A DNA stretch of 64,000 nucleotides. It comes from Dehalococcoidia bacterium (GTDB lineage: Bacteria; Chloroflexota; Dehalococcoidia; Plut-88900). A model generated the notes under the pieces. That model had not been told where the DNA came from and searched no databases. It saw only the letters and a list, made by a program, of their open reading frames with translations. The stretch is from positions 323,030 through 387,029 of the forward strand of contig CBDFLQ010000005.1 of the NCBI GenBank assembly GCA_965249275.1. The letters are read 5' to 3'. A program made the translations under genes and the position numbers. This document shows positions 8,000-60,382 of this stretch, one piece after another (position 1 is the first letter of the stretch; every line of letters begins with the position of its first letter).

Positions 8000-8617
8000 G
8001 TGAACGAGATGGATATAGACGTTCCCCGACCAGCGCCGGAGGACGGAAGGAACTTCTTGCGGGCGCGATGGAAGATTATTGTGCCGCTGCTTCTCTTATT
8101 TGCCGGGTTGGTGGCGGTGTTGGTGTGGGGGGCGCTGGACAAGGACTCGGCCACGGGGGGGAGCGGGGCGACCAGGCCGGGCAAGGAGGCTCCCGCATTC
8201 TCGTTGGAATCATTCTCTGATGGGATGGTGTCGCTGGCCGATTTCGAAGGGCAGCCGGTGATCATCAACTTCTGGGCGTCGTGGTGTGCACCGTGTCGAC
8301 AGGAAATGCCGGCACTGGAGGCGACCTGGCAGCTGTTCCGAGAGCGGGACTTGGTCATTGTGGGTATCAATTTGCCTAAAAGTGACCCCGAGGAAAGCGC
8401 CCGAGCATTTCTGGACGAGTTCGGCATAAGTTATCCAAACGTCTTCGACACGAGAGGGTTTACGGCTATCGACTACGGGGTGTCGGGGATACCGGTTACA
8501 TTCTTCGTGGACAGGGAGGGTGTCGTGACCCGGAGGTTTGTGGGGACGCTTACTGAGGGTTCGTTGATGGTGTGGGCGGAAGAGTTGGTGGGGGGTGGGG
8601 AACCCTCACCCCCTTAG
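8000..8617 (+). CDS. TlpA/ResA-like membrane-anchored thiol:disulfide oxidoreductase
   Basis: 205 aa. One N-terminal TM helix and a thioredoxin-fold WASWCAPC active site. GTG start at 8000, or ATG at 8009. Confidence 0.85.
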   Translation: MNEMDIDVPRPAPEDGRNFLRARWKIIVPLLLLFAGLVAVLVWGALDKDSATGGSGATRPGKEAPAFSLESFSDGMVSLADFEGQPVIINFWASWCAPCRQEMPALEATWQLFRERDLVIVGINLPKSDPEESARAFLDEFGISYPNVFDTRGFTAIDYGVSGIPVTFFVDREGVVTRRFVGTLTEGSLMVWAEELVGGGEPSPP

Positions 8618-11151: not shown

Positions 11152-11401
11152 GGGATTTGGTGAAGCGCATATGTTGTTTTCCCTCAAGGATCACCCTCAC
11201 CTCTTCGACAGGCTCAGGGCAGGCTCTAGCCCTCTCACGCCTTGGCGCATCTACGACCCGTCGAGGGAGAGGGGACAGGACGCCCCCCGCTCGACCCTTC
11301 GACCCTGCTTCGGCCTCTGCGGATCCTCCTCAGGCGGATGTTCCATCTTCGACAGCACGAGCGGCCCCACGCACCGCGGAATGGATTGAGAAGGGTAGCG
11401 A

Positions 11402-16447: not shown

Positions 16448-16572
16448 GGGGGAACCCTCACCCCCTTGGTCCCCCTCTCCCTTAGGGCCTTCAAGGGAGA
16501 GGGGGAAAGAAGAATAGGGGCATGCATATGCGCTTTAGCGCATATGCATGCCCCTAATTCAGTACCGGGGGA
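16448..16572. repeat. Two-hairpin interspersed element (family D), copy 2
   Basis: Same flanks and first hairpin as 8598..8713. The second stem (16516-16555) has a different sequence but is again perfect. Begins ~37 nt after the stop of the FadH-like gene. Confidence 0.7.
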
Positions 16573-16825: not shown

Positions 16826-16951
16826 ATTCACGACTCGGCGCACGCTAAAGGCGCATCCTCCCAAGGCGGACGTTCCGCTTGCAGCATCTTTGTCCGGCTC
16901 GGGGGGCGGGATGACGAGGGGAAGGCAGATAGGTGATGGGGCAAGTCCTAG

Positions 16952-28914: not shown

Positions 28915-29517
28915 GATATTCAGTTGGGCTTGGGTTTTGGCTGGTTTGTTGGGGAGGGAGTAGGCGATGGAAGGTCGGTGACTCTTGGGCAGGGGCGGGA
29001 GGCCAACCTGCGATGACCCCACGTGTCTTTTAGCTAGGCGGACGAGGTGAGTGGGGTGTTCTCGTCCACAAGACGCTTGGCTCGACCATTCGGAGGAATG
29101 GGAGCACGAACCCGCTGCCGTCGTCTACCGAACGGAACTCTCGGATGGTGACGACGGTGGAGTCCCATAAGGGCTCGATGGCCCTTAGCAAGCCCTGCAT
29201 AGGCGGGCTGTTATATTTCGCTGAGCTATGCGCATAGCTTAGACTCGAACGCGCCGGGTGAAGGGTGCGTCGAGTAGGCCGGTCTCGCAAGCCTACATGC
29301 TGCTTAGAGTCGATGGACCTCCCATCGCCTGATGGGTGGGGGAAGGTTGAGCCGGGGCCTTAGGTATGAGGAGATGGCGGCTTTCGCTTGAGCCGTGGGG
29401 CGGTGTGGGCCGCCCTTTGGGATGGGCTGGGACGTTGAGTCCTCGTGTGGGCCGGGGATGGTGTTCCCCCTGGGTTGTGGTTCCTCCTTGGGTTTTGGGT
29501 GAGTGACGGGCCAGTCG
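28915..29517 (-). ncRNA. Candidate large structured ncRNA, copy E1 (unclassified family)
   Basis: Has its own TTGACC-N18-TATATT promoter. The ~180-nt 5' domain and the C/A-rich 3' tail are conserved with 48306..48939. A 15-bp long-range helix (28962-28976 / 29316-29330) closes a 339-nt hairpin-rich insert. No reading frame is conserved between the copies. Confidence 0.45.
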
Positions 29518-29523
29518 AGGATG

Positions 29524-29553
29524 AATATAGTACATGTGTACAAGTCTGGTCAA
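29524..29553 (-). promoter_or_regulatory. Sigma70-type promoter of E1
   Basis: On the minus strand, TTGACC (29553-29548), 18-nt spacer, TATATT (29529-29524). The hexamers and the 18-nt spacing are identical at 48946..48975. Most of the spacer and ~20 nt upstream are also conserved. Confidence 0.6.
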
Positions 29554-29662
29554 GGGGTTGGTGTCACTTTCGGGCCTCACTCAGCTATGACGTCTATTGG
29601 CCTGGACGCACTGAGGCTCCTACAATGAAGGCCGAGCGGCAGTATCCTGACTGCATCAGATC

Positions 29663-31041: not shown

Positions 31042-31549
31042 ACTAAGGCATCCAGCGACAGCTCTCTGCCTATTGATAGAAGAATTCCTTTGGGACTTTG
31101 GCCGCGTCTAGCGAAGGAAGGCGACCAGCCGGTCACCCCTACGTGGAAGGAAGCCATTCCAATTGGACAATGCTTCGACGGAATCAGGATGCGTGGCCCC
31201 TTGGCTTGGACTCACGCCAGCACAGCGTCTTCGGCAGGGTCGGGGATGATGGGGAGGGTGTAATGAGAGACGTGTGTGGGCAAGTCCTAGATTCCTCGCG
31301 GGACCTCGGAATGACAGGGGAGAATAGGGTGGGGTGGCGTCGGGCGGACGCGACTGATTGGCAGCGCGGGGCCTCCCCCCGCTCGACCCTTCGATCCGCC
31401 TCGGCGGACTTTCAGCTAGCTCAGGGTGAGCGGCCCCACCCAGGGCAACAACGAGGGTTTGCCCCTACGGGGGAGGGGATGGATTCCGGCTCGGGGGCCG
31501 GAATGATCCACCTAAGGCGGACAGGCTCCCCTAGGATGGAATGGGGGGG

Positions 31550-33025: not shown

Positions 33026-33137
33026 GGGAGTCTAACTTTCTTGGTGGGCCGTTTAGCTAACTTCGTAGGCTGCTCATTTGAAGCCCAGTTTCACCCTCAC
33101 CCTAGCCCTCTCCCGTCGAGGGAGAGGGGACAGGACC

Positions 33138-34439
33138 GGTACAGACCGGGCAGAAAGGTAACACATAAACCGGGGACATGGGTAACACATCGTGGGATTG
33201 TATTAGGCAATCCCAGAGGAGGAAGATGTGTTGCCTTGGAAAGACACGAGCATAGAATCGGAGCGGTTGCAGTTCATCGAGCGTCACACTGCGGGAGAGG
33301 AGACTATTGCTGAGCTGTGCCGCCGGTCCGGGATCAGCCGCAAGACGGGCTACAAGATAATCGGCCGATACGAGGCGTATGGTGAGGACGGTCTACTTGA
33401 CCTAAGCCGGGCTCCTCACAGCCATCCCAACGCCACTTCCATAGAGGTGGCTAAGCGTATCATCGAGGCGAAGCGCACCCATCCCACATGGGGCCCGAAG
33501 AAGATCGTCGCCTGGTTGCATTCCATCGAGCCCTACGTGCCCTGGCCTTCCTCCAGTACTGCGGGCGCCATACTGGACCGTGTGGGTCTGGTGAGGCGGC
33601 GCAAGCGGCGGCGCAGGGCTACACGCTGGGGCGAGCCCTTCGCCCACGCCCGGCACCCCAATGACGTGTGGGCCATCGACCTGAAGGGCTGGTTCCGCAC
33701 GGATGACGGAATGCGGATAGACCCCCTTACAGCCCAGGACGCCATGTCCCGCTACTTACTGGTATGCGACCCTCTCGACCGCCCTGCCGGCCCGGAAGTC
33801 AAGCGCTCTCTGGAGAGAACCTTCCGAGAGTACGGCATCCCTCGGGCCATACGCACCGACAATGGTCCGCCCTTCGCCAGTGTGGGTCTGGGCAGCCTCT
33901 CACCACTCTCAGCATGGTGGGTCAAGCTCGGGATCGTACCCGAACGCATAGAGCCCGGTCACCCCGAACAGAATGGACGCATCGAGCGCCTTCACCGGAC
34001 CCTCAAGGCCGAGACCGCAACACCTCCAAAGGCCAACTGGAGACGACAACGCAGAGCCCTCGAACGCTTCAGACACACCTACAACTTCGAGAGGCCACAT
34101 GAGGCCCTGGGGCAGCAACCACCAAGCCGGCTGTACACGCCCTCGATCAGACCCTATCCCACACGTATCAGCTCGCCCGAGTACAACGCCGGTGTCACCG
34201 TACGTAGTGTCCGCAGCAACGGACAGATCAAGTGGAAGGGAGATATGCTCTACGTGAGCGAGTCCCTCAAGGGCGAACCCATCGGCCTGGTCCAGATAGA
34301 CGAACGAACCTGGTCCATACAGTTCGGGCCACTCATCATCGGACTCCTTGATGACCCCACCAGAAGGGTCGACAAAACCCCAGTCAAAGTGTTACCTATG
34401 TCCTCGGTCTAACTGTTACCCATGTCCCCGGTCGTACAG
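33138..34439 (+). mobile_element. IS481-family insertion sequence, copy A (~1.3 kb)
   Basis: Sequence shared with 44943..46244 starts at GGTACAGACCGGG and ends at CCGGTCGTACAG. The ends are imperfect IRs. Boundaries are good to +/-3 bp. Confidence 0.85.
33228..34412 (+). CDS. IS481-family transposase (HTH + rve integrase core)
   Basis: 394 aa. N-terminal HTH, then a DDE core (WAIDLK...IRTDNGPPF...HPEQNGRIERLHRTLK). Confidence 0.9.
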   Translation: MLPWKDTSIESERLQFIERHTAGEETIAELCRRSGISRKTGYKIIGRYEAYGEDGLLDLSRAPHSHPNATSIEVAKRIIEAKRTHPTWGPKKIVAWLHSIEPYVPWPSSSTAGAILDRVGLVRRRKRRRRATRWGEPFAHARHPNDVWAIDLKGWFRTDDGMRIDPLTAQDAMSRYLLVCDPLDRPAGPEVKRSLERTFREYGIPRAIRTDNGPPFASVGLGSLSPLSAWWVKLGIVPERIEPGHPEQNGRIERLHRTLKAETATPPKANWRRQRRALERFRHTYNFERPHEALGQQPPSRLYTPSIRPYPTRISSPEYNAGVTVRSVRSNGQIKWKGDMLYVSESLKGEPIGLVQIDERTWSIQFGPLIIGLLDDPTRRVDKTPVKVLPMSSV

Positions 34440-43619: not shown

Positions 43620-44966
43620 TTGCGGCGTTATCCTTGCCTCCGACCCAGGGAGGCCCCTTTGCCAAGCAATACACGCTACCGTTCAGTTAGAGGCACGGAA
43701 GACATCCTGCCCGACGCCCAGCCAAGATGGCGCAGTGTCCGGGACACTATGGTTTCCGTCTGCGAGCGGTATTCGTACGGCCAGATAGATACGCCGATCT
43801 TCGAGGACTACAACCTTTTTGTGCGGGGAGTCGGGGAGGTGACGGATATCGTGGAGAAGGAGATGTACCTGATCCCCGACAGATCGGGCAGCGACACCCT
43901 GGCCCTCCGCCCTGAGGCCACCGCCGCCGTCTGCCGCGCCTACCTCCAGCACGGTCTCCACACCCGGCCTCAGCCCATACGCCTATACACGGTCATGGCC
44001 CCGATGTTCCGCTACTCCAGGCCGCAGTCGGGGCGGCTCAGGCAGTTCCACCAGCTGAACGTCGAGGCGATAGGAGACCCTGACGCGACTGTCGACGCGG
44101 AGATTCTTGGGCTCTGCTGGCAGGTGTTCGCAGAGCTGGGCCTGACGGGCCTCACCCTCCAGCTGAACAGCATCGGCGATGCCGCGTGCCGTCCCGCATA
44201 CGTGCAGGCGCTCAAGTCTTACTACGGAGAACGGGTCGAGCAGCTGTGCCGGGACTGCACGGCGCGGCTGGACAGGGCGCCACTACGGCTGCTCGACTGC
44301 AAGGAAGAGAGATGTCAGCCATTTATCGAAGGGGCGCCCCGCAGCCGCGACCTTCTCTGCGCCGAGTGCGAGGCCCATTTCGCCGACCTGGTCGGCTTTC
44401 TGGAAGCGATGGACGTGCCCTTTGTGCTCGACCACCGGCTGGTCCGGGGGCTGGACTACTACACCCGCACGGTATTCGAGGTACAGACTGAGGCAGAAGG
44501 GGGTCAAAACGCACTCGGGGGTGGGGGGAGGTACGACGGGTTGATAGAGGAGATTGGCGGTAAGCCTACGCCGGGTGTCGGGTTTGCGATGGGCATCGAG
44601 CGGATAATTCTCAACCTGGAGAAGCAGGCCGTGGCGGCTCCCGAGCCACAATTGCCCTCGGTCTTCGTGGCCTACGTCGGGCAGAAGGCAAGGGAGCGGG
44701 CGGTCGTGCTGTCCGCGGAGCTGGTTAGGGCGGGTGTTGCGAACGTGCTCGGTCCTGCATCGAAGAGTCTGAAGGCGCAACTGCGGCAGGCGGGGGGGAT
44801 GGGGGTGCCTTACGTGGCGATCATCGGAGAGGATGAGGCGGAGCGGGGGGTGGTGACGCTGCGGAATATGTCGGAGAGGACGCAGGAGGAGGTTGGGGTG
44901 GGGGGGCTTGTCTCCGCGCTGCATCACTCGGGATCACCCTCACTGTACGACCGGGGACATGGGTAA
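43620..44966 (+). CDS. hisS: Histidine--tRNA ligase (C-terminal codons supplied by the IS481 end)
   Basis: Class II aaRS motifs, a HisRS-typical N-terminus (VRGTEDILP) and an anticodon-binding domain. The start is uncertain. The last ~8 codons and the stop lie inside IS481 copy B. Confidence 0.9.
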   Translation: MRRYPCLRPREAPLPSNTRYRSVRGTEDILPDAQPRWRSVRDTMVSVCERYSYGQIDTPIFEDYNLFVRGVGEVTDIVEKEMYLIPDRSGSDTLALRPEATAAVCRAYLQHGLHTRPQPIRLYTVMAPMFRYSRPQSGRLRQFHQLNVEAIGDPDATVDAEILGLCWQVFAELGLTGLTLQLNSIGDAACRPAYVQALKSYYGERVEQLCRDCTARLDRAPLRLLDCKEERCQPFIEGAPRSRDLLCAECEAHFADLVGFLEAMDVPFVLDHRLVRGLDYYTRTVFEVQTEAEGGQNALGGGGRYDGLIEEIGGKPTPGVGFAMGIERIILNLEKQAVAAPEPQLPSVFVAYVGQKARERAVVLSAELVRAGVANVLGPASKSLKAQLRQAGGMGVPYVAIIGEDEAERGVVTLRNMSERTQEEVGVGGLVSALHHSGSPSLYDRGHG

Positions 44967-46244
44967 CAGTTAGACCGAGGACATAGGTAACACTTTGACT
45001 GGGGTTTTGTCGACCCTTCTGGTGGGGTCATCAAGGAGTCCGATGATGAGTGGCCCGAACTGTATGGACCAGGTTCGTTCGTCTATCTGGACCAGGCCGA
45101 TGGGTTCGCCCTTGAGGGACTCGCTCACGTAGAGCATATCTCCCTTCCACTTGATCTGTCCGTTGCTGCGGACACTACGTACGGTGACACCGGCGTTGTA
45201 CTCGGGCGAGCTGATACGTGTGGGATAGGGTCTGATCGAGGGCGTGTACAGCCGGCTTGGTGGTTGCTGCCCCAGGGCCTCATGTGGCCTCTCGAAGTTG
45301 TAGGTGTGTCTGAAGCGTTCGAGGGCTCTGCGTTGTCGTCTCCAGTTGGCCTTTGGAGGTGTTGCGGTCTCGGCCTTGAGGGTCCGGTGAAGGCGCTCGA
45401 TGCGTCCATTCTGTTCGGGGTGACCGGGCTCTATGCGTTCGGGTACGATCCCGAGCTTGACCCACCATGCTGAGAGTGGTGAGAGGCTGCCCAGACCCAC
45501 ACTGGCGAAGGGCGGACCATTGTCGGTGCGTATGGCCCGAGGGATGCCGTACTCTCGGAAGGTTCTCTCCAGAGAGCGCTTGACTTCCGGGCCGGCAGGG
45601 CGGTCGAGAGGGTCGCATACCAGTAAGTAGCGGGACATGGCGTCCTGGGCTGTAAGGGGGTCTATCCGCATTCCGTCATCCGTGCGGAACCAGCCCTTCA
45701 GGTCGATGGCCCACACGTCATTGGGGTGCCGGGCGTGGGCGAAGGGCTCGCCCCAGCGTGTAGCCCTGCGCCGCCGCTTGCGCCGCCTCACCAGACCCAC
45801 ACGGTCCAGTATGGCGCCCGCAGTACTGGAGGAAGGCCAGGGCACGTAGGGCTCGATGGAATGCAACCAGGCGACGATCTTCTTCGGGCCCCATGTGGGA
45901 TGGGTGCGCTTCGCCTCGATGATACGCTTAGCCACCTCTATGGAAGTGGCGTTGGGATGGCTGTGAGGAGCCCGGCTTAGGTCAAGTAGACCGTCCTCAC
46001 CATACGCCTCGTATCGGCCGATTATCTTGTAGCCCGTCTTGCGGCTGATCCCGGACCGGCGGCACAGCTCAGCAATAGTCTCCTCTCCCGCAGTGTGACG
46101 CTCGATGAACTGCAACCGCTCCGATTCTATGCTCGTGTCTTTCCAAGGCAACACATCTTCCTCCTCTGGGATTGCCTAATACAATCCCACGATGTGTTAC
46201 CCATGTCCCCGGTTTATGTGTTACCTTTCTGCCCGGTCTGTACC
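44943..46244 (-). mobile_element. IS481-family insertion sequence, copy B (inverted relative to copy A)
   Basis: Shares the sequence of 33138..34439. Inserted inside a family-C repeat (ATCACCCTCAC | IS | CCACCCTAGCCCTCTCCC). Confidence 0.85.
44970..46154 (-). CDS. IS481-family transposase
   Basis: 394 aa, identical to 33228..34412. Confidence 0.9.
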   Translation of the reverse strand: MLPWKDTSIESERLQFIERHTAGEETIAELCRRSGISRKTGYKIIGRYEAYGEDGLLDLSRAPHSHPNATSIEVAKRIIEAKRTHPTWGPKKIVAWLHSIEPYVPWPSSSTAGAILDRVGLVRRRKRRRRATRWGEPFAHARHPNDVWAIDLKGWFRTDDGMRIDPLTAQDAMSRYLLVCDPLDRPAGPEVKRSLERTFREYGIPRAIRTDNGPPFASVGLGSLSPLSAWWVKLGIVPERIEPGHPEQNGRIERLHRTLKAETATPPKANWRRQRRALERFRHTYNFERPHEALGQQPPSRLYTPSIRPYPTRISSPEYNAGVTVRSVRSNGQIKWKGDMLYVSESLKGEPIGLVQIDERTWSIQFGPLIIGLLDDPTRRVDKTPVKVLPMSSV

Positions 46245-46592
46245 CACCCTAGCCCTCTCCCATCGAGGGAGAGGGGATAAGACCCGCCCCAATTCCGCTC
46301 TTGAGACCCTTCGACTCTGCTCAGGGCGAGCGGAATACCCCTACCCTAGGAATGGAAACGCCGTACTTCGTGTGCCGGTCCAAAGGCCGGGATGACGGGT
46401 AGGGACCACGAGGGACGGTTCTGAAGAGAGGTTAGTGGATGGGCAAGTCCTAGATCCCTCGCGGGGCCGCGGGATGAGAAGGGGTTGGGGGTGGTTTCTT
46501 CGGGACGCACTCCGTACCGGTTAGCGTGGAGGACTTGGGGGCGTGCTATACTCTAGCCTCGCCGGAGGAGCCGGCCCTCGCCTCGTTGAGCC

Positions 46593-48305: not shown

Positions 48306-48939
48306 GATATTGAGTTGTGGTGGGAGCTTGGTTTTGGTTGTTGGGAGGGGGCAGGCGATGGAAGGTCCGTGACTAGAAACCAGGCCGGGGGTTGCTGCCG
48401 AGCCGTCGGCACCGGGCTGGATTATCCCCACACGTTGCCGGCTGTGGTCAGGGTTGTGTGGGGCAGATCCCAAATCGTGAGCGGCACATGACCGGACCGC
48501 TGACGTGGAAGATGCCGCCTGAGGCGGTCTTTCAGAACCGGCGTCCCGGTGCATCCGCCGGGTAGACGGGTGGCAGGGACGGCGGGACAAACAAGGACAC
48601 GAGGGCCTTGCTAAACCGGTGGTCGGTTGACCTACCGGGAAAACCGGCACGCAATGGGCCGGGGTAAACGCACCCGATGATGGGGGGCGTTGAATCGGCA
48701 GGGGCGTCGTTGGACGGGGCCTGCCGAGCATAGTCTGTGGATCTTCCATCGCCTGGGTTGCGGGGGAAGGTGAGCCTGGGCCTTTGGTATGAGGAGATGG
48801 CGGCGTTTGCTTGAGCCGGGCACTGCTGATGCAGAGCCACGGGATGGGCTTAGACGTTGAGTCCTCCGGTGGGCCGGGGCTGTGGTTCCCCCTGGGCTGT
48901 GGTTCCTCCTTGGGTTTAGGGTGAGTGATTGGCCAATCG
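48306..48939 (-). ncRNA. Candidate large structured ncRNA, copy E2 (same family as 28915..29517)
   Basis: Same promoter, 5' domain and 3' tail as E1. The closing helix 48353-48367 / 48740-48754 encloses an unrelated 372-nt insert. A hairpin at the equivalent position has a different sequence but remains paired. Confidence 0.45.
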
Positions 48940-48945
48940 GGGGTG

Positions 48946-48975
48946 AATATAGTACAGATGTACAATTCGGGTCAA
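48946..48975 (-). promoter_or_regulatory. Sigma70-type promoter of E2
   Basis: On the minus strand, TTGACC (48975-48970), 18-nt spacer, TATATT (48951-48946). Confidence 0.6.
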
Positions 48976-49045
48976 GGGGTTCGTGTCACTTTTGGGGGGG
49001 AGGGGTTATCCTAATCCATCAAGGGATAGGGGAGAGGACAGATAA

Positions 49046-52000
49046 TTGAAGGACAGCACACACGAACAAACGCTAAACGTCGCACTGGGCGAAGTTCTCA
49101 ATGAACTACGGCGAAGCTGGAATGCCCGTAGCGAACGGACGGGGAACGTGCTAGTAGAAGGTGGCCGCCCCGACATCCTAGTGGAAGAGGCGAGCGGATG
49201 GCCTATCGTCATTGAGGCTGAACGCAGCAATCATACAGAAGCAGAGGCTGACGCCAAGGCGCGGTTAGGGCTTACGGTCGCCAATACCGGAAGGCAGATA
49301 GAAACAGCGATCGCCCTTGTCTACCCCTCCGAACTTCACACGCTTGACGGTTCCGCACTGCGCAAAGAGATAGGCCAAACCCAAGAGTTGGAATATGCAC
49401 TGTACACCCGCCGAGCTGAAGAAGAACCGGAGCGTTTACCCACGCAAGGATGGATAAAGGGTGGGGTGCGGGACCTGGCGATGCTGGTACAGCGGGCGGC
49501 GGTGCCTCCACCCAGGATCGAGGCTCTGGCTACTGAACTAGAGAATGGAGTGCGGATTGCAGGGGACGAATTTACGCGGAGGCACAAATACGGAGGTGAA
49601 TTGGGAGCGCGAGCAGCTAAGGTTCTGGGTCAGGATGATGATGCCGAAGGCCAGACACGCAGAATGGTTATGACCGTTATAGCTAATGCACTAGTTTTCC
49701 ATGAGTCCCTGGCAGAGGCCGAATTCCTAATTGAAGAGAGCGAGGGAGGCCCTGAACGCGCAGTGCGACCCGTCGCCCACTTCCGTCCCGGAGGTTTGTT
49801 TGCCCACGCTGACCTTTGCTTGGAATGGGAACGCATCCTGCGCATCAACTACTGGCCCATTTTCTGGTCCGCCAAAGAGATGCTGGGCCTAATGCCCACC
49901 CACACGGCCCACGCAGTGCTAGACCGGCTCTGGCATACCGGACAGAAGCTGGTTGCGGGCGGTGTAACACGGTCTCACGATCTGACGGGGATAATCTTCC
50001 AAAGGCTCATTGCCGACCGCAAGTTTCTTGCGACCTACTATACCCGGCCTGAAGCAGCGGCGCTCCTGGCGGCTCTGGCTTTGCCCGCGGACAACCCACT
50101 GGGCGGGGCAAACTGGGGAGACGAGGAGACACTAGCCAGTGCACAAATTGGAGACTTTACCTGTGGGACGGGAACCCTGCTCTCGATGGCGTACCAGAGG
50201 ATGACTTTGCTCCACGAATTGCACGGCGGTGACCCTCGCAAGCTTCACAGGCCGATGATGCGGCACGGGCTGGTAGGCCTAGACGTCCTTAACATCGGCG
50301 TTCACTTGACGGCGGCTATGCTGGCGGGAAGCCATCCCGATACTCCGTTCGATGGGGAATGCCTATTGACAATGCCCTATGGCAAGCAAGGCGACAAAAG
50401 TGTTGCTATAGGGTCCCTGGAATTGCTGGCACCATTTGTACAATCGTCGTTTATTGACACTGCAACGGCGGTGTCGGCAGGGGGCAGGTCTCCTGAAGCT
50501 GTTCAAGACATAGTGGATCGGACAGGGAATGGGAAGTTCGATCTGGTAATTATGAACCCACCCTTTGTGCGGTCCACTGGAATGGAAGGTGAGAAGCTAG
50601 CCAAAGGCAATTCGGCATTCGCAGGCCTAAAGAATGACAAGCCCACACAAAAGAAGATGCAAAAGCGCCTAGTCTCCCTTAGGGGGAGTGCGCCACTTGG
50701 TACTGGGAACGCGGGGCTTGCAGCAGATTTCTTGGATGTTGCATTGCGCAAAGCCAGGCAAGACGGGATCATTGCTCTGGTGCTACCGCTCAGCGCAATT
50801 AGTGGTGTGGTATGGGAGATGGCTCGCAAGACAATCTTCAAGGAATGCACGGATATCGTCACAGTAACCATAGCAGGTGCTCGTTCTGATGAGTCCTCTT
50901 TCTCTGCCGATACAGGCATGGCCGATTGCTTATTGATTGCTCGCAAGGGTGGGGAAGACGATGAGAAAAGGGGTATTTTCGTAGTGCTGCACAAAAGCCC
51001 GAGGTCAGCAGTTGAAGCCGAATTACTTGCAGCTGAGATCGCGAGAGTTCGACAACCCGGCCGCATGGCGACGGTGGAGCACATGGATGGTGAAAGCACA
51101 ATTATCATAGGAGGGCAAGAATACGGAGTGGTTCTTGATGCTCCACTTCCTGAGTCCGGGCCGTGGCCTTTGGTGGGGATTCGGGATGCGGAGGTCGCCC
51201 ATGTAGCTTGGACTCTCGAGCGAGGGGCTTTGGTGCAACTTGGGCGGCCTGGACACGAGTCTTTGAAGTTGCCAATCGTTGCCGTCGGAAAGATTGGTGG
51301 ACGAGGGCCCTATCATGCAGACATCTACTGGAGTCAATCAGATGGAACTCCACGCGGCCCTTTTGAGTTGATTAGACCGGCGGTCAACCCTGTTCCAACA
51401 TATCCAATGCTATGGGCTCACGACGCCAAGAAGGAGCGAAGACTGGTTTTGAAACCTGACTCCGAGGGGCGAATAAAGCCAGCATCGGGAAAGATGACTG
51501 AGGATCGAATCACGGATAAGGCTGCACAAATTTGGGTGACAGCGACACGGGCTCATTACAATCGAGACTTGCAGTTCAATTCGCAATCTTTGATTGTGGC
51601 GATGACTAACCGGCCTTGCATCGGAGGACGGGCTTGGCCATCGGTCATCTTTCAGGACCCGGAGTATGAATATGCATTTGCATTGTGGTGCAACTCTACG
51701 TTGGGCTTACTGATGCACTGGTGGGCAACCAACAAGACGCAATCGGGGCGTGGGACTACTACAGTCACGGGCATCCCTAACATTCCTACGGTAGATGTGC
51801 GAACGCTGACAAAGAAGCAGTTGGGCGAGGCAAAAGACGCTTTCAATGTGATGAAAGGGTTGCGCTTCCTTCCCTTCGACCAGATAGACGGGGATCCGGC
51901 TCGTGCAGAGTTGGACCGACGCCTGCTGGTGGACGTGTTAGGTCTGCCGGAATCGCTAGTGGTTGCTGGAGGACCAATAGACTTGTTGAGGCGCAAGCTA

Positions 52001-52090
52001 GCCCGCGAGCCACAGATTCATGGGGGTAAGAAGTCGCGGGTTGTGTTTCAAGATGATGGGGAACGGTCAGAGCAACGTACGGACCGTTGA
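49046..52090 (+). CDS. Single-polypeptide nuclease-like + gamma-class N6-adenine DNA methyltransferase (type IIG/IIL-like RM candidate)
   Basis: 1014 aa. N-terminal PD-(D/E)xK-like block GRPDILVEE...WPIVIEAER. AdoMet motif I GDFTCGTGTLL, then motif IV FDLVIMNPPF. A ~400-aa C-terminal region is a putative specificity domain. Lower GC than the flanks. Confidence 0.65.
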   Translation: MKDSTHEQTLNVALGEVLNELRRSWNARSERTGNVLVEGGRPDILVEEASGWPIVIEAERSNHTEAEADAKARLGLTVANTGRQIETAIALVYPSELHTLDGSALRKEIGQTQELEYALYTRRAEEEPERLPTQGWIKGGVRDLAMLVQRAAVPPPRIEALATELENGVRIAGDEFTRRHKYGGELGARAAKVLGQDDDAEGQTRRMVMTVIANALVFHESLAEAEFLIEESEGGPERAVRPVAHFRPGGLFAHADLCLEWERILRINYWPIFWSAKEMLGLMPTHTAHAVLDRLWHTGQKLVAGGVTRSHDLTGIIFQRLIADRKFLATYYTRPEAAALLAALALPADNPLGGANWGDEETLASAQIGDFTCGTGTLLSMAYQRMTLLHELHGGDPRKLHRPMMRHGLVGLDVLNIGVHLTAAMLAGSHPDTPFDGECLLTMPYGKQGDKSVAIGSLELLAPFVQSSFIDTATAVSAGGRSPEAVQDIVDRTGNGKFDLVIMNPPFVRSTGMEGEKLAKGNSAFAGLKNDKPTQKKMQKRLVSLRGSAPLGTGNAGLAADFLDVALRKARQDGIIALVLPLSAISGVVWEMARKTIFKECTDIVTVTIAGARSDESSFSADTGMADCLLIARKGGEDDEKRGIFVVLHKSPRSAVEAELLAAEIARVRQPGRMATVEHMDGESTIIIGGQEYGVVLDAPLPESGPWPLVGIRDAEVAHVAWTLERGALVQLGRPGHESLKLPIVAVGKIGGRGPYHADIYWSQSDGTPRGPFELIRPAVNPVPTYPMLWAHDAKKERRLVLKPDSEGRIKPASGKMTEDRITDKAAQIWVTATRAHYNRDLQFNSQSLIVAMTNRPCIGGRAWPSVIFQDPEYEYAFALWCNSTLGLLMHWWATNKTQSGRGTTTVTGIPNIPTVDVRTLTKKQLGEAKDAFNVMKGLRFLPFDQIDGDPARAELDRRLLVDVLGLPESLVVAGGPIDLLRRKLAREPQIHGGKKSRVVFQDDGERSEQRTDR

Positions 52091-56640: not shown

Positions 56641-56757
56641 GGGGAACCCTCTCCCCCTTGGTCCCCCTCTCCCTTAGGGCCATAAAGGGAGAGGGGGAGG
56701 GATGAACAGAGGCAGACGCCTGTGCGTTAGCACAGGCGTCTGCCTCTAGTTCGGTAC
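56641..56757. repeat. Two-hairpin interspersed element (family D), copy 3
   Basis: Conserved first hairpin (CCCCCTCTCCCTTAGGGCC...AAGGGAGAGGGGG). The second stem is a perfect 18 bp (56708-56725 / 56730-56747) with a third, different sequence. The tail is TAGTTCGGTAC. Confidence 0.7.
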
Positions 56758-59629: not shown

Positions 59630-59718
59630 GGGTAAGTGCCGGAACCGGCAGACGGGCTATCCTGCCAAGATAGTGGCCCTTCGTGGTCGTAGGGGTTCGA
59701 TCCCCCTCTTACCCACCA
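59630..59718 (+). tRNA. Class II (long variable arm) tRNA, Leu-type scaffold, anticodon GCC (isotype/anticodon mismatch)
   Basis: Hand fold. Acceptor GGGTAAG/CTTACCC, U8, D arm CCG-GAACCGGCAGA-CGG, anticodon stem CTATC/GATAG with loop CTGCCAA (GCC at 59664-59666). 17-nt variable arm, T arm AGGGG-TTCGATC-CCCCT, A73, encoded CCA. Confidence 0.7.
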
Positions 59719-60293: not shown

Positions 60294-60382
60294 GCCGTAG
60301 TGGTGGAACTGGTAGACACGCCCGGCTTGCACCCGGGTGGACTAATCGTCCGTGCAGGGTTCGAATCCCGCCTACGGCACCA
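60294..60382 (+). tRNA. Class II tRNA, Leu-type scaffold, anticodon UGC (isotype/anticodon mismatch)
   Basis: Hand fold. Acceptor GCCGTAG/CTACGGC, D arm GTG-GAACTGGTAGA-CAC, anticodon stem CCCGG/CCGGG with loop CTTGCAC (TGC at 60328-60330). 16-nt variable arm (GGAC/GTCC stem). T arm GC(A)GGG-TTCGAAT-CCCGC with one bulged A. A73 and encoded CCA. Confidence 0.6.

Follow-up and report, generated by a model that had tools for sequence, protein, structure and literature searches.

A dispersed family of probable large modular RNAs with a conserved promoter and scaffold and exchangeable cassettes in one Dehalococcoidia clade

What is specified by a stretch of some 660 bp in a Dehalococcoidia genome that has no credible open reading frame (ORF), a strong promoter at one end and a sequence full of potential hairpins? 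The stretch lies in contig CBDFLQ010000005.1, within a 64-kb piece of DNA that was analysed as a whole and is called the window here. A preliminary description, made from the sequence of the window alone, took it for a large structured RNA with a second copy elsewhere in the same piece; the two copies are referred to below as E1 and E2. The same architecture has now been fully extracted in 77 copies from related genomes, far beyond what chance would give, and the helices of both its scaffold and its central cassette are maintained by compensatory substitutions. The reading that we favour, and in which our confidence is about evenly balanced, is that E1 is a gene in a multicopy family of independently transcribed, stable, modular non-coding RNA genes of ~0.6-1.0 kb.

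E1 occupies 28916-29570 and E2 48307-48992, both on the minus strand, and these are exactly the two family copies that nhmmer finds in the 64-kb window with the family profile. They align over their full length except in the middle. The minus-strand promoter hexamers are identical, TTGACC-N18-TATATT, at 29553-29524 in E1 and 48975-48946 in E2, and the conserved sequence upstream of them is a box, GTGACAC(C/G)AACCCC, which directly precedes TTGACC and occurs window-wide only at E1 and E2 (0.14 expected). The 5' region is conserved over ~190 nt, with CCCAAGGAGGAACCACA exact in both copies (29476-29492 in E1, 48898-48914 in E2). Within it, E1 has the hairpin GGGCGG/CCGCCC (29415-29398) where E2 has a hairpin of unrelated sequence that differs in length by 1 nt. 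A long-range helix of 15 bp, including one G-U, pairs 29330-29316 with 28962-28976 in E1, and E2 has equivalent arms at 48754-48740 and 48367-48353; the arm form common to both copies is AGGCGAUGG(G/A)AG, and the complementary arm is GACCUUCCAUCGCCU. The helix closes an insert of 339 nt in E1 and of 378 nt in E2, the sequences of which are unrelated. Beyond it a C/A-rich tail is conserved to ~28916 (E1) and 48307 (E2), ending CAACU(G/C)AAUAU. All of these parts had been proposed in the preliminary description, from the shared promoter to the 3' tail, and each of them holds up. Both copies also fold to lower energies than their dinucleotide shuffles (z = -4.5 for E1 and -5.2 for E2). Because the opposite strand of E1 folds low as well (z -3.8 vs -4.5), folding energy does not choose the strand, and the RNA strand was assigned from the promoter. 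The parts of E1, followed by E2, are as follows, with helices numbered P1 to P6.

28916..29570, minus strand: E1, complete element (upstream box, promoter, 5' domain, cassette, tail)
29561..29570, minus strand: A-tract and GTGACAC box ahead of the -35, where family conservation begins on the left
29548..29553, minus strand: -35 hexamer TTGACC, kept in all copies
29524..29529, minus strand: -10 hexamer TATATT after an 18-nt spacer, then a GC-rich discriminator; predicted transcription start near 29517
29505..29516, minus strand: 5'-terminal hairpin GAC-UGGCCC-GUC; double changes in 2 of its 3 pairs
29480..29489, minus strand: AAGGAGGAAC, Shine-Dalgarno-like, predicted unpaired, without a start codon after it
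29464..29470, minus strand: P1 5' strand GGGGGAA
29450..29457, minus strand: P2 5' strand CCCCGGCC (2 bp, CC/CC internal loop, 4 bp)
29440..29444, minus strand: P3 5' strand GAGGA (invariant), followed by invariant CUCAACG
29398..29415, minus strand: P4 apical hairpin GGGCGG-CCCACA-CCGCCC; position kept, sequence replaced among copies
29378..29395, minus strand: P5 hairpin CGGCU-CAAGCGAA-AGCCG
29368..29372, minus strand: P3 3' strand UCCUC, inside CGCCAUCUCCUC
29352..29359, minus strand: P2 3' strand GGCCCCGG
29338..29344, minus strand: P1 3' strand UUCCCCC; three pairs covary with the CAGGGAAG/CUUCCCUG subfamily
29316..29330, minus strand: P6 long-range helix, 5' arm AGGCGAUGGGAGGUC
28977..29315, minus strand: exchangeable structured cassette, class 6, 339 nt, ~13 helices
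28962..28976, minus strand: P6 long-range helix, 3' arm GACCUUCCAUCGCCU
28916..28961, minus strand: G-poor, C/A-rich single-stranded tail ending CAACUGAAUAU
48307..48992, minus strand: E2, with a class 3 cassette, convergent with nadE; -35 at 48970-48975, -10 at 48946-48951

The preliminary description envisaged a rare RNA with two copies, a picture that does not survive a wider search. When species-representative genomes were searched with the two-block pattern of the 5' domain, 94 of the 99 8-kb stretches listed came from eight Dehalococcoidia metagenome-assembled genomes (MAGs), several of which are complete chromosomes of 3.0-3.4 Mb (the complete chromosomes include OZ240215.1, OY760104.1, OZ241876.1 and OZ244800.1) and which may be sponge-associated; the remaining five stretches, from unrelated taxa, are chance matches (L008, L009, L031, L040 and L074). 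Profile matches number at least 22, 17, 16, 13, 8, 7, 6 and 5 per genome, the first four counts being those of chromosomes and the largest that of a 3.4-Mb chromosome; these counts are lower bounds, and at least eight related species genomes carry elements. Copies are scattered around the chromosomes, one per 8-kb stretch and each in a different context. The window is 81-95% identical in nucleotide sequence to the syntenic parts of the element-bearing genomes and therefore belongs to a related species. A metagenome scan with AGCCCATCCC...CCATCTCCTC returned, among the matches listed, only three genuine contigs (LXNJ01, all from one project), nearly all others being chance matches. No family members were present in the plasmid, phage and viral collections searched, and our literature searches found the element described nowhere. 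The RNA family is undescribed and lineage-specific, and it is restricted to one Dehalococcoidia clade.

The common anatomy was compiled from the 77 fully extracted copies. The promoter is complete in all 77, and a consensus scan also flags it at E1 and E2. It is a near-consensus sigma-70 promoter, in which an A-tract/GTGACAC box, TTGAC(C/A), a spacer of 17-18 nt (often with TG ahead of the -10) and TAnnnT lead into a GC-rich discriminator. Within its first ~20 nt, the predicted RNA of every copy has either a small hairpin with a 4-nt loop palindrome or a perfect palindrome of 6-10 nt. A GAY-N6-RTC hairpin, the E1 type, is found in 19 copies; where E1 has its 5' hairpin, other copies carry GAU/AUC stems or 6-10-nt palindromes, namely GTTCGAAC (28 copies), GTCTAGAC (12) and CGATCGAAC (8). 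The palindromes differ in sequence (TTCGAA, TCTAGA, CGATCG), and it seems to be palindromy itself that is conserved, which could reflect an RNA dimerisation site or an operator. The Shine-Dalgarno-like AAGGAGGAAC (AAGGAGG) that follows is also present in copies ascertained through other motifs, and in none of the 77 does an ATG, GTG or TTG lie 4-13 nt after it.

After the leader and the unpaired AAGGAGGAAC comes a ~135-nt irregular hairpin domain, P1-P5. P1 is either CAGGGAAG/CUUCCCUG or GGGGGAA/UUCCCCC, P2 contains a conserved CC/CC internal loop, and P3, GAGGA/UCCUC, is invariant. The apical hairpin P4 has its sequence replaced between copies, and P5 is a small hairpin. The stretches CUCAACG, AGCCCAUCCCAA and CAAGC between these helices are invariant and unpaired. 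P6 ranges from 15 to 20 bp across the family, and whole elements from 650 to 1000 bp. The tail, of ~50 nt, is 44% A, 39% C, 9% G and 7% U over the 77 copies and is unpaired in the consensus fold; it resembles a Rho utilisation (rut) site in being unstructured, C-rich and G-poor. In 26 of the 77 copies the tail is followed by one to three small GC hairpin repeats, and 18 copies have a right extension, CCGGYGTGTCACTAAYCTACCGAACGAGTRCA, which never occurs apart from an element and has a second promoter behind it.

Two further observations concern these parts. Three copies in OY764147.1 (L019, L064 and L077) have a tandem duplication of the P3-P5 part, with two GAGGACUCAACG modules. The GC hairpin repeat TCCGCCTNNGGNGGA occurs in the window at 11324-11338, 16856-16870 and 31507-31521 (5 strand-specific matches vs 0.6 expected), and in related genomes it lies inside the 5' domain at the P5 position or, as one to three copies, after the tail (26/77). 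This repeat may represent a mobile hairpin of miniature size or a hairpin at the 3' end.

Helices of the scaffold and of the cassette are kept by compensatory substitutions. In an alignment of 51 distinct 5' domains, 97.1% of cells pair, compared with 93.2% when partners are shuffled (0/500), and 53 cells show double changes, compared with 19 in the shuffles (0/500). Sliding the partner by 1-3 columns reduces pairing to 41-57%. Most of this signal separates two subfamilies, and the scaffold therefore holds few independent covariation events. For the full-length RNA of the E1 class (8 sequences from five or more genomes), RNAalifold gives 134 pairs in 21 helices. Double changes occur in 19 of the 134 pairs, against 6.0 +/- 1.9 in shuffled alignments (0/500), a measure that is rarely false positive according to the tool's own notes, and the share of cells that pair is 93.9%, dropping to 38-47% on sliding. 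P6 hardly varies in its core, where L061 has a compensated U-A to C-G change, and its inner extension covaries between GUCC/GGAC and ACGCC/GCGU. Paired positions are rich in G+C, and of the unpaired residues 42% are C, 31% A and 12% G. The covariation that had been suspected for the position-conserved hairpin is seen as compensatory change, and the long-range helix is maintained by such changes as well.

Could the region instead be a degenerate or unusual protein-coding gene, given the proline-rich ORFs on its C-rich strand? The RNA strand does have open frames of 80-180 aa, an 814-aa ORF encloses E2, and a few gene callers have annotated ORFs in elements. However, the ORF would start upstream of the promoter, E1 and E2 are shifted in frame relative to each other inside the conserved domain, and 80 of the 89 alignment gap runs in the E1 cassette class (90%) are not multiples of 3. 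Substitutions in helices are compensatory. A 95-aa conceptual ORF compared with 5.8 billion proteins found only 6 ENA MAG ORFs, which are unannotated, spurious calls without a Pfam domain, and there are no homologues outside elements. We consider a coding gene extremely improbable. The frame shifts, the non-triplet indels and the want of a start codon after AAGGAGGAAC all agree with the non-coding nature first proposed.

The absence of any recognisable RNA family, also noted at the outset, was confirmed by covariance-model search. With Rfam 15 at the gathering threshold, only a tRNA elsewhere in the window was reported and nothing inside the elements at 18 related loci; a permissive search gave only noise at E<=10 on the E1 region and nothing at E<=0.1 at 8 loci. 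The search works, since RNase P and 5S rRNA were detected elsewhere in the same loci. RNase P, tmRNA, 6S RNA, signal recognition particle RNA, group I and II introns, riboswitches and T-boxes all failed to reach the gathering threshold, as did OLE, GOLLD, ROOL, raiA and HEARO. A tRNA-like or tmRNA-like unit was rejected with ARAGORN, which found none in the elements of the window and 21 loci save a doubtful antisense tRNA-Ser in the L004 cassette. A retron, group II intron or other RNA linked to a reverse transcriptase (RT) was rejected on the grounds that there are no Rfam hits, no cassette ORF and no RT beside E1 or E2, RTs not having been surveyed genome-wide.

OLE, GOLLD, ROOL and raiA are large ornate bacterial non-coding RNAs of unknown function (PMC12286853, PMC5737381). 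The elements described here are like them in being at least 600 nt long, non-coding and rich in covariation-supported helices, and in having no deducible function; a possible 5' self-association motif would, speculatively, echo the homo-oligomers of ornate RNAs. Unlike them, the elements have no covariance-model match, dozens of paralogues per genome in place of one or few, an exchangeable cassette of at least 18 classes, no association with phages or tRNAs, and a range of one Dehalococcoidia clade.

The insert, which the preliminary description had noted as full of hairpins, is an exchangeable cassette. Clustering of the inserts yields 10 multi-member classes and 8 singletons, or at least 18 classes. 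Cassettes are 197-537 nt long with many hairpins, and they occur only inside elements; several classes are found in several species, with up to six copies per genome each. They contain no ORF, and no autonomous master copy with an internal ORF was found among the elements. The long inserts that had been considered as autonomous copies proved to be either variant arms or an IS21-like insertion. Inversion of the DNA between the P6 arms was likewise rejected, as the cassette is inverted in none of the copies. Two cassettes of one class in the same genome mostly share 82-98% identity; in classes 2 and 5, which cluster loosely, identity drops to 65-70%, and the sole identical pair is L067/L070 (100%).

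Many loci are orthologous across species, with the same neighbour gene and flanks that are 80-95% identical, and often with different cassette classes. In four species the same downstream gene has a cassette of class 7, 12, 3 or 1 ahead of it, and at a locus where both flanks are conserved two species differ in having class 0 and class 1, respectively. The tail and downstream flank of E2 are 94-96% identical to those of its ortholog L007; its cassette is unrelated to that of L007 and matches, at 97% identity, the cassette of L049, which lies at another locus of the L007 genome. As orthologous loci carry different classes, the chromosomal slots are old and stable, and it is the cassettes, and sometimes promoter-leader segments, that recombination through the conserved scaffold and P6/tail sequences moves among them. 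Breakpoints of exchange lie in conserved scaffold or P6 segments, and in L220 a recombination inside the 5' domain has left P2 mismatched.

Such mobility raises the question of whether the element is a selfish, non-autonomous mosaic repeat, similar to a miniature inverted-repeat transposable element or a bacterial interspersed mosaic element (BIME), or spread by recombination. Its promoter would then simply be carried along, any effect on the host would be incidental, and the folded strand, as RNA or single-stranded DNA, would serve its own propagation. The high-copy dispersal in unrelated contexts and the modular build fit this explanation, as do other small repeats and insertion sequence (IS) elements at the borders. 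A 9-bp inverted AGTGACACG lies beyond the tail in 18 of the 77 copies, the match being confined to those with the right extension and lacking in E1 and E2. Species also differ in presence and absence, and L030 has an element upstream of a gene that is without one in the window. Against this, there are no consistent terminal inverted repeats and no target-site duplications at the boundaries, no copy contains a transposase or RT, and the only interrupted copy holds an unrelated IS. The divergence of same-class copies within genomes, the many orthologous loci and the absence from plasmid, phage and viral collections, all given above, are further points on that side. Since the cassettes evolve by compensatory changes, the fold appears to have been under long-term selection. 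A precise empty site that would fix the ends and any target-site duplication was not obtained, the intergenic DNA being unalignable between the available species. The preliminary description had named a repeat or mobile-element relic as the alternative should covariation be absent: the copy number suits a repeat, but covariation is present. On balance, we judge the selfish repeat to be unlikely.

BIMEs and the related repetitive extragenic palindromic (REP) sequences, the pneumococcal BOX element and the Correia element of Neisseria are intergenic repeats of mosaic build, which are transcribed and may bring promoters with them. The present elements share with them an intergenic location, high copy number, conserved ends around a variable middle, an RNA fold, a capacity to influence neighbour genes and a role as a hot spot for IS insertion. 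They are, however, 3-20 times larger, with a complex non-palindromic fold of ~21 helices that evolves by compensation, a consensus promoter in every copy, no clear terminal inverted repeats or target-site duplications, and loci that are stable across species. Integron cassettes and shufflons offer another likeness, a variable unit between conserved inverted sequences that is exchanged among loci. The elements differ from these in having no integrase or attC and cassettes that are never inverted; the exchange looks like homologous gene conversion, and the inverted arms are those of an RNA helix with compensated changes.

Several insertion sequences and small repeats were observed in the surroundings of the elements. 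The window has two IS481-family copies (rve/HTH) at 33119-34438 on the plus strand and 44944-46245 on the minus strand, ~89% identical to copies in related genomes. Their ends read TGTACAGACCGGG..., and both lie in or beside a small REP-like module, CCCTAGCCCTCTCCC...GGGAGAGGG. The repeat module GGGGGTGAGGGTTCCCC is found on the minus strand at 8597-8613, 16449-16465 and 56641-56657, and in related genomes it is very often directly upstream of the element promoter box, beside IS481 insertions. Upstream sequence of at least 1.1 kb is 100% identical among L035, L059 and L097 (OZ244800.1) and again among L034, L043 and L095 (OZ241876.1). It looks like an insertion sequence that ends a few nucleotides before the -35 hexamer, which suggests either targeted insertion at the left border of the element or co-conversion of IS and promoter. 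In L055 (3080-5660) the 5' domain is split by a ~2.6-kb insertion with an IstB-like ATPase on the opposite strand, which is probably IS21-like.

The genes next to the elements bear on whether the RNA acts on its own or in cis. Of the 77 copies, 54 (~70%) point toward the nearest long ORF, typically 30-200 nt past the tail, and 23 (30%) are not co-oriented with the next gene. The ten downstream genes that were scanned are unrelated housekeeping and metabolic genes: a sulfate permease, a CoA-transferase, an MFS transporter, MoaA, a luciferase-like monooxygenase, an amidohydrolase, GlnRS/GluRS, SdhA, LeuRS and an M24 peptidase. In L011 and L026, 5S rRNA and tRNA-Gly genes are just downstream. By strict criteria, a second strong promoter on the same strand is present within 300 nt after the tail in at least 20 of the 77 copies, and one on the opposite strand in none. 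Read by eye rather than computed, chromosome position and orientation show no clean replichore pattern.

In the window, E1 and E2 lie next to genes for an ion channel, FabF, NadE and a methylase and to a SWIM-like ORF. E1 is followed by a second promoter, TTGACC-17-TAAAAT at 28761-28733, ahead of an 82-aa ORF (28661-28413) that matches the SWIM Pfam domain below threshold (E 0.015, 15.2 bits vs a cut-off of 19.6). E2 heads into the 3' end of nadE, an arrangement that is conserved in a related genome (genome A). The preliminary description had linked the RNA to the SWIM gene and had asked if homologues always lie beside SWIM, channel or restriction-modification genes. They do not, the neighbours being unrelated across copies, and the SWIM association is best regarded as incidental because the downstream genes are unrelated, the match is sub-threshold, the ORF has its own promoter and E2 faces nadE. 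Divergent from E2, at 49046-52090 on the plus strand, is a 1014-aa ORF with a weak Eco57I-type methylase match; its neighbourhood is variable, the corresponding region being different in a related genome (L075).

This arrangement would also suit a portable promoter with a giant structured leader in cis, in which a strong promoter is joined to a processed or stabilising 5' untranslated region of the downstream gene, the C/A-rich tail is a Rho-dependent attenuator or translation enhancer, and the fold serves stability, processing or attenuation and has no role in trans. The 54 copies that face the nearest long ORF, often at 30-200 nt, are in keeping with it, and so are the retention of an upstream element by the same genes across species and the 5S rRNA and tRNA-Gly genes of L011 and L026. 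Several downstream ORFs start too near the tail for a separate promoter, and the Shine-Dalgarno-like 5' motif with its 5' hairpin recalls known mRNA stabilisers. However, co-orientation fails in 30% of copies, among them E2, whose head-on arrangement with the 3' end of nadE is conserved in genome A, and at least 26%, including E1, have a separate strong promoter between tail and gene. The downstream genes share no function. No terminator, antiterminator or Shine-Dalgarno-sequestering platform was seen, and E1 and E2 have no terminator-like site on the RNA strand. As the class changes at a fixed locus, the cassette does not appear to be tuned to the downstream gene. A cis-acting leader is possible, and somewhat less doubtful than a selfish repeat, although we do not favour it.

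Two known kinds of 5' leader allow a closer comparison. STAB-SD is the 5' stabiliser of Bacillus cryIIIA mRNA, and the elements resemble it in having a strong Shine-Dalgarno sequence near the 5' end, with a hairpin before it and a start codon after it in none of the 77 copies. They differ in that the motif belongs to a much larger conserved RNA, and the likeness lies at the level of sequence. T-box and riboswitch leaders also occur in many copies upstream of diverse genes, aminoacyl-tRNA synthetases included, and also combine a conserved core with variable parts. In contrast to those leaders, the elements have no Rfam match and no expression platform, their own promoter is often followed by a second one, 30% are not co-oriented, and they are several-fold larger.

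The reading of E1 as a stand-alone RNA gene draws on the convergence of E2 with nadE, on the copies that are not co-oriented, on the second promoters and on the GC hairpins after the tail. If it is correct, the RNA would accumulate as a stable molecule, with the 5' hairpin and the Shine-Dalgarno sequence that lacks a start codon protecting its 5' end in the manner of STAB-SD. The conserved scaffold would be a handle for a common partner or for self-association, which palindromic leaders could permit through self-pairing, and the cassettes would supply functional diversity. The C/A-rich tail, sometimes with a GC hairpin repeat, would end the transcript as a Rho loading site or bind a protein. 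Homologous recombination among copies would homogenise the scaffold and shuffle the cassettes, and read-through into a co-oriented neighbour would be a side effect shaped by selection.

Protein-sponge RNAs are one precedent for parts of this scheme; they include CrcZ, with its A-rich CA motifs, and CsrB/RsmZ, and they present repeated unpaired motifs. The elements have in common with them a strong promoter, a non-coding nature and long unpaired A/C-rich stretches with AAnAAnAA-like runs. They differ in their far higher copy number, their large structured body and the lack of a known partner.

A number of points weigh against a stand-alone RNA gene. The transcription start, the 3' end and the stability of the RNA are all predictions, and no canonical terminator follows the tail in E1 or E2. 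The ~70% of copies that are co-oriented with and near the next gene fit a role in cis as well. The homologues are all from a single narrow clade, much of the covariation in the scaffold reflects the split between just two subfamilies, and the structures were predicted from the same sequences that were used for counting, a bias that the tool itself notes. To our knowledge, dozens of large trans-acting RNA paralogues in one bacterial genome would also be unprecedented.

Apart from the elements, ARAGORN predicts two unusually long tRNAs in the window, each of 89 nt: tRNA-Gly(GCC) at 59630-59718 and tRNA-Ala(UGC) at 60294-60382. Of the two, Rfam reports only tRNA-Ala(UGC), at 47 bits.

The elements make up ~0.5% or more of the carrier genomes, in which they are currently unannotated, and they can mislead gene callers, as spurious proline-rich ORFs that already sit in databases attest. 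Large structured bacterial RNAs without an assigned function are rare, and each has opened new biology; the present family adds features that none of them shows, namely a very high copy number, a conserved promoter and scaffold, and cassette swaps that preserve the fold at stable loci. We tentatively raise the possibility, more doubtful than the stand-alone gene itself, of a new kind of RNA gene system in which dozens of paralogous large RNAs per genome have a common scaffold and interchangeable, individually folded cassettes that are shuffled between fixed slots. Such a system would be the RNA analogue of a multigene family with domain swapping. Its RNAs might be modular particles or adaptors, for example ones that self-associate via their palindromic 5' leaders, or ones that bring various partners to a shared protein or, via the free Shine-Dalgarno sequence, to the ribosome. 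Were the RNAs to act in trans, bacteria would have in them their first family of large RNAs that is modular and combinatorial; were they to act in cis, the element would be the largest known portable promoter/leader module, controlling dozens of housekeeping genes in an abundant uncultured Dehalococcoidia lineage.

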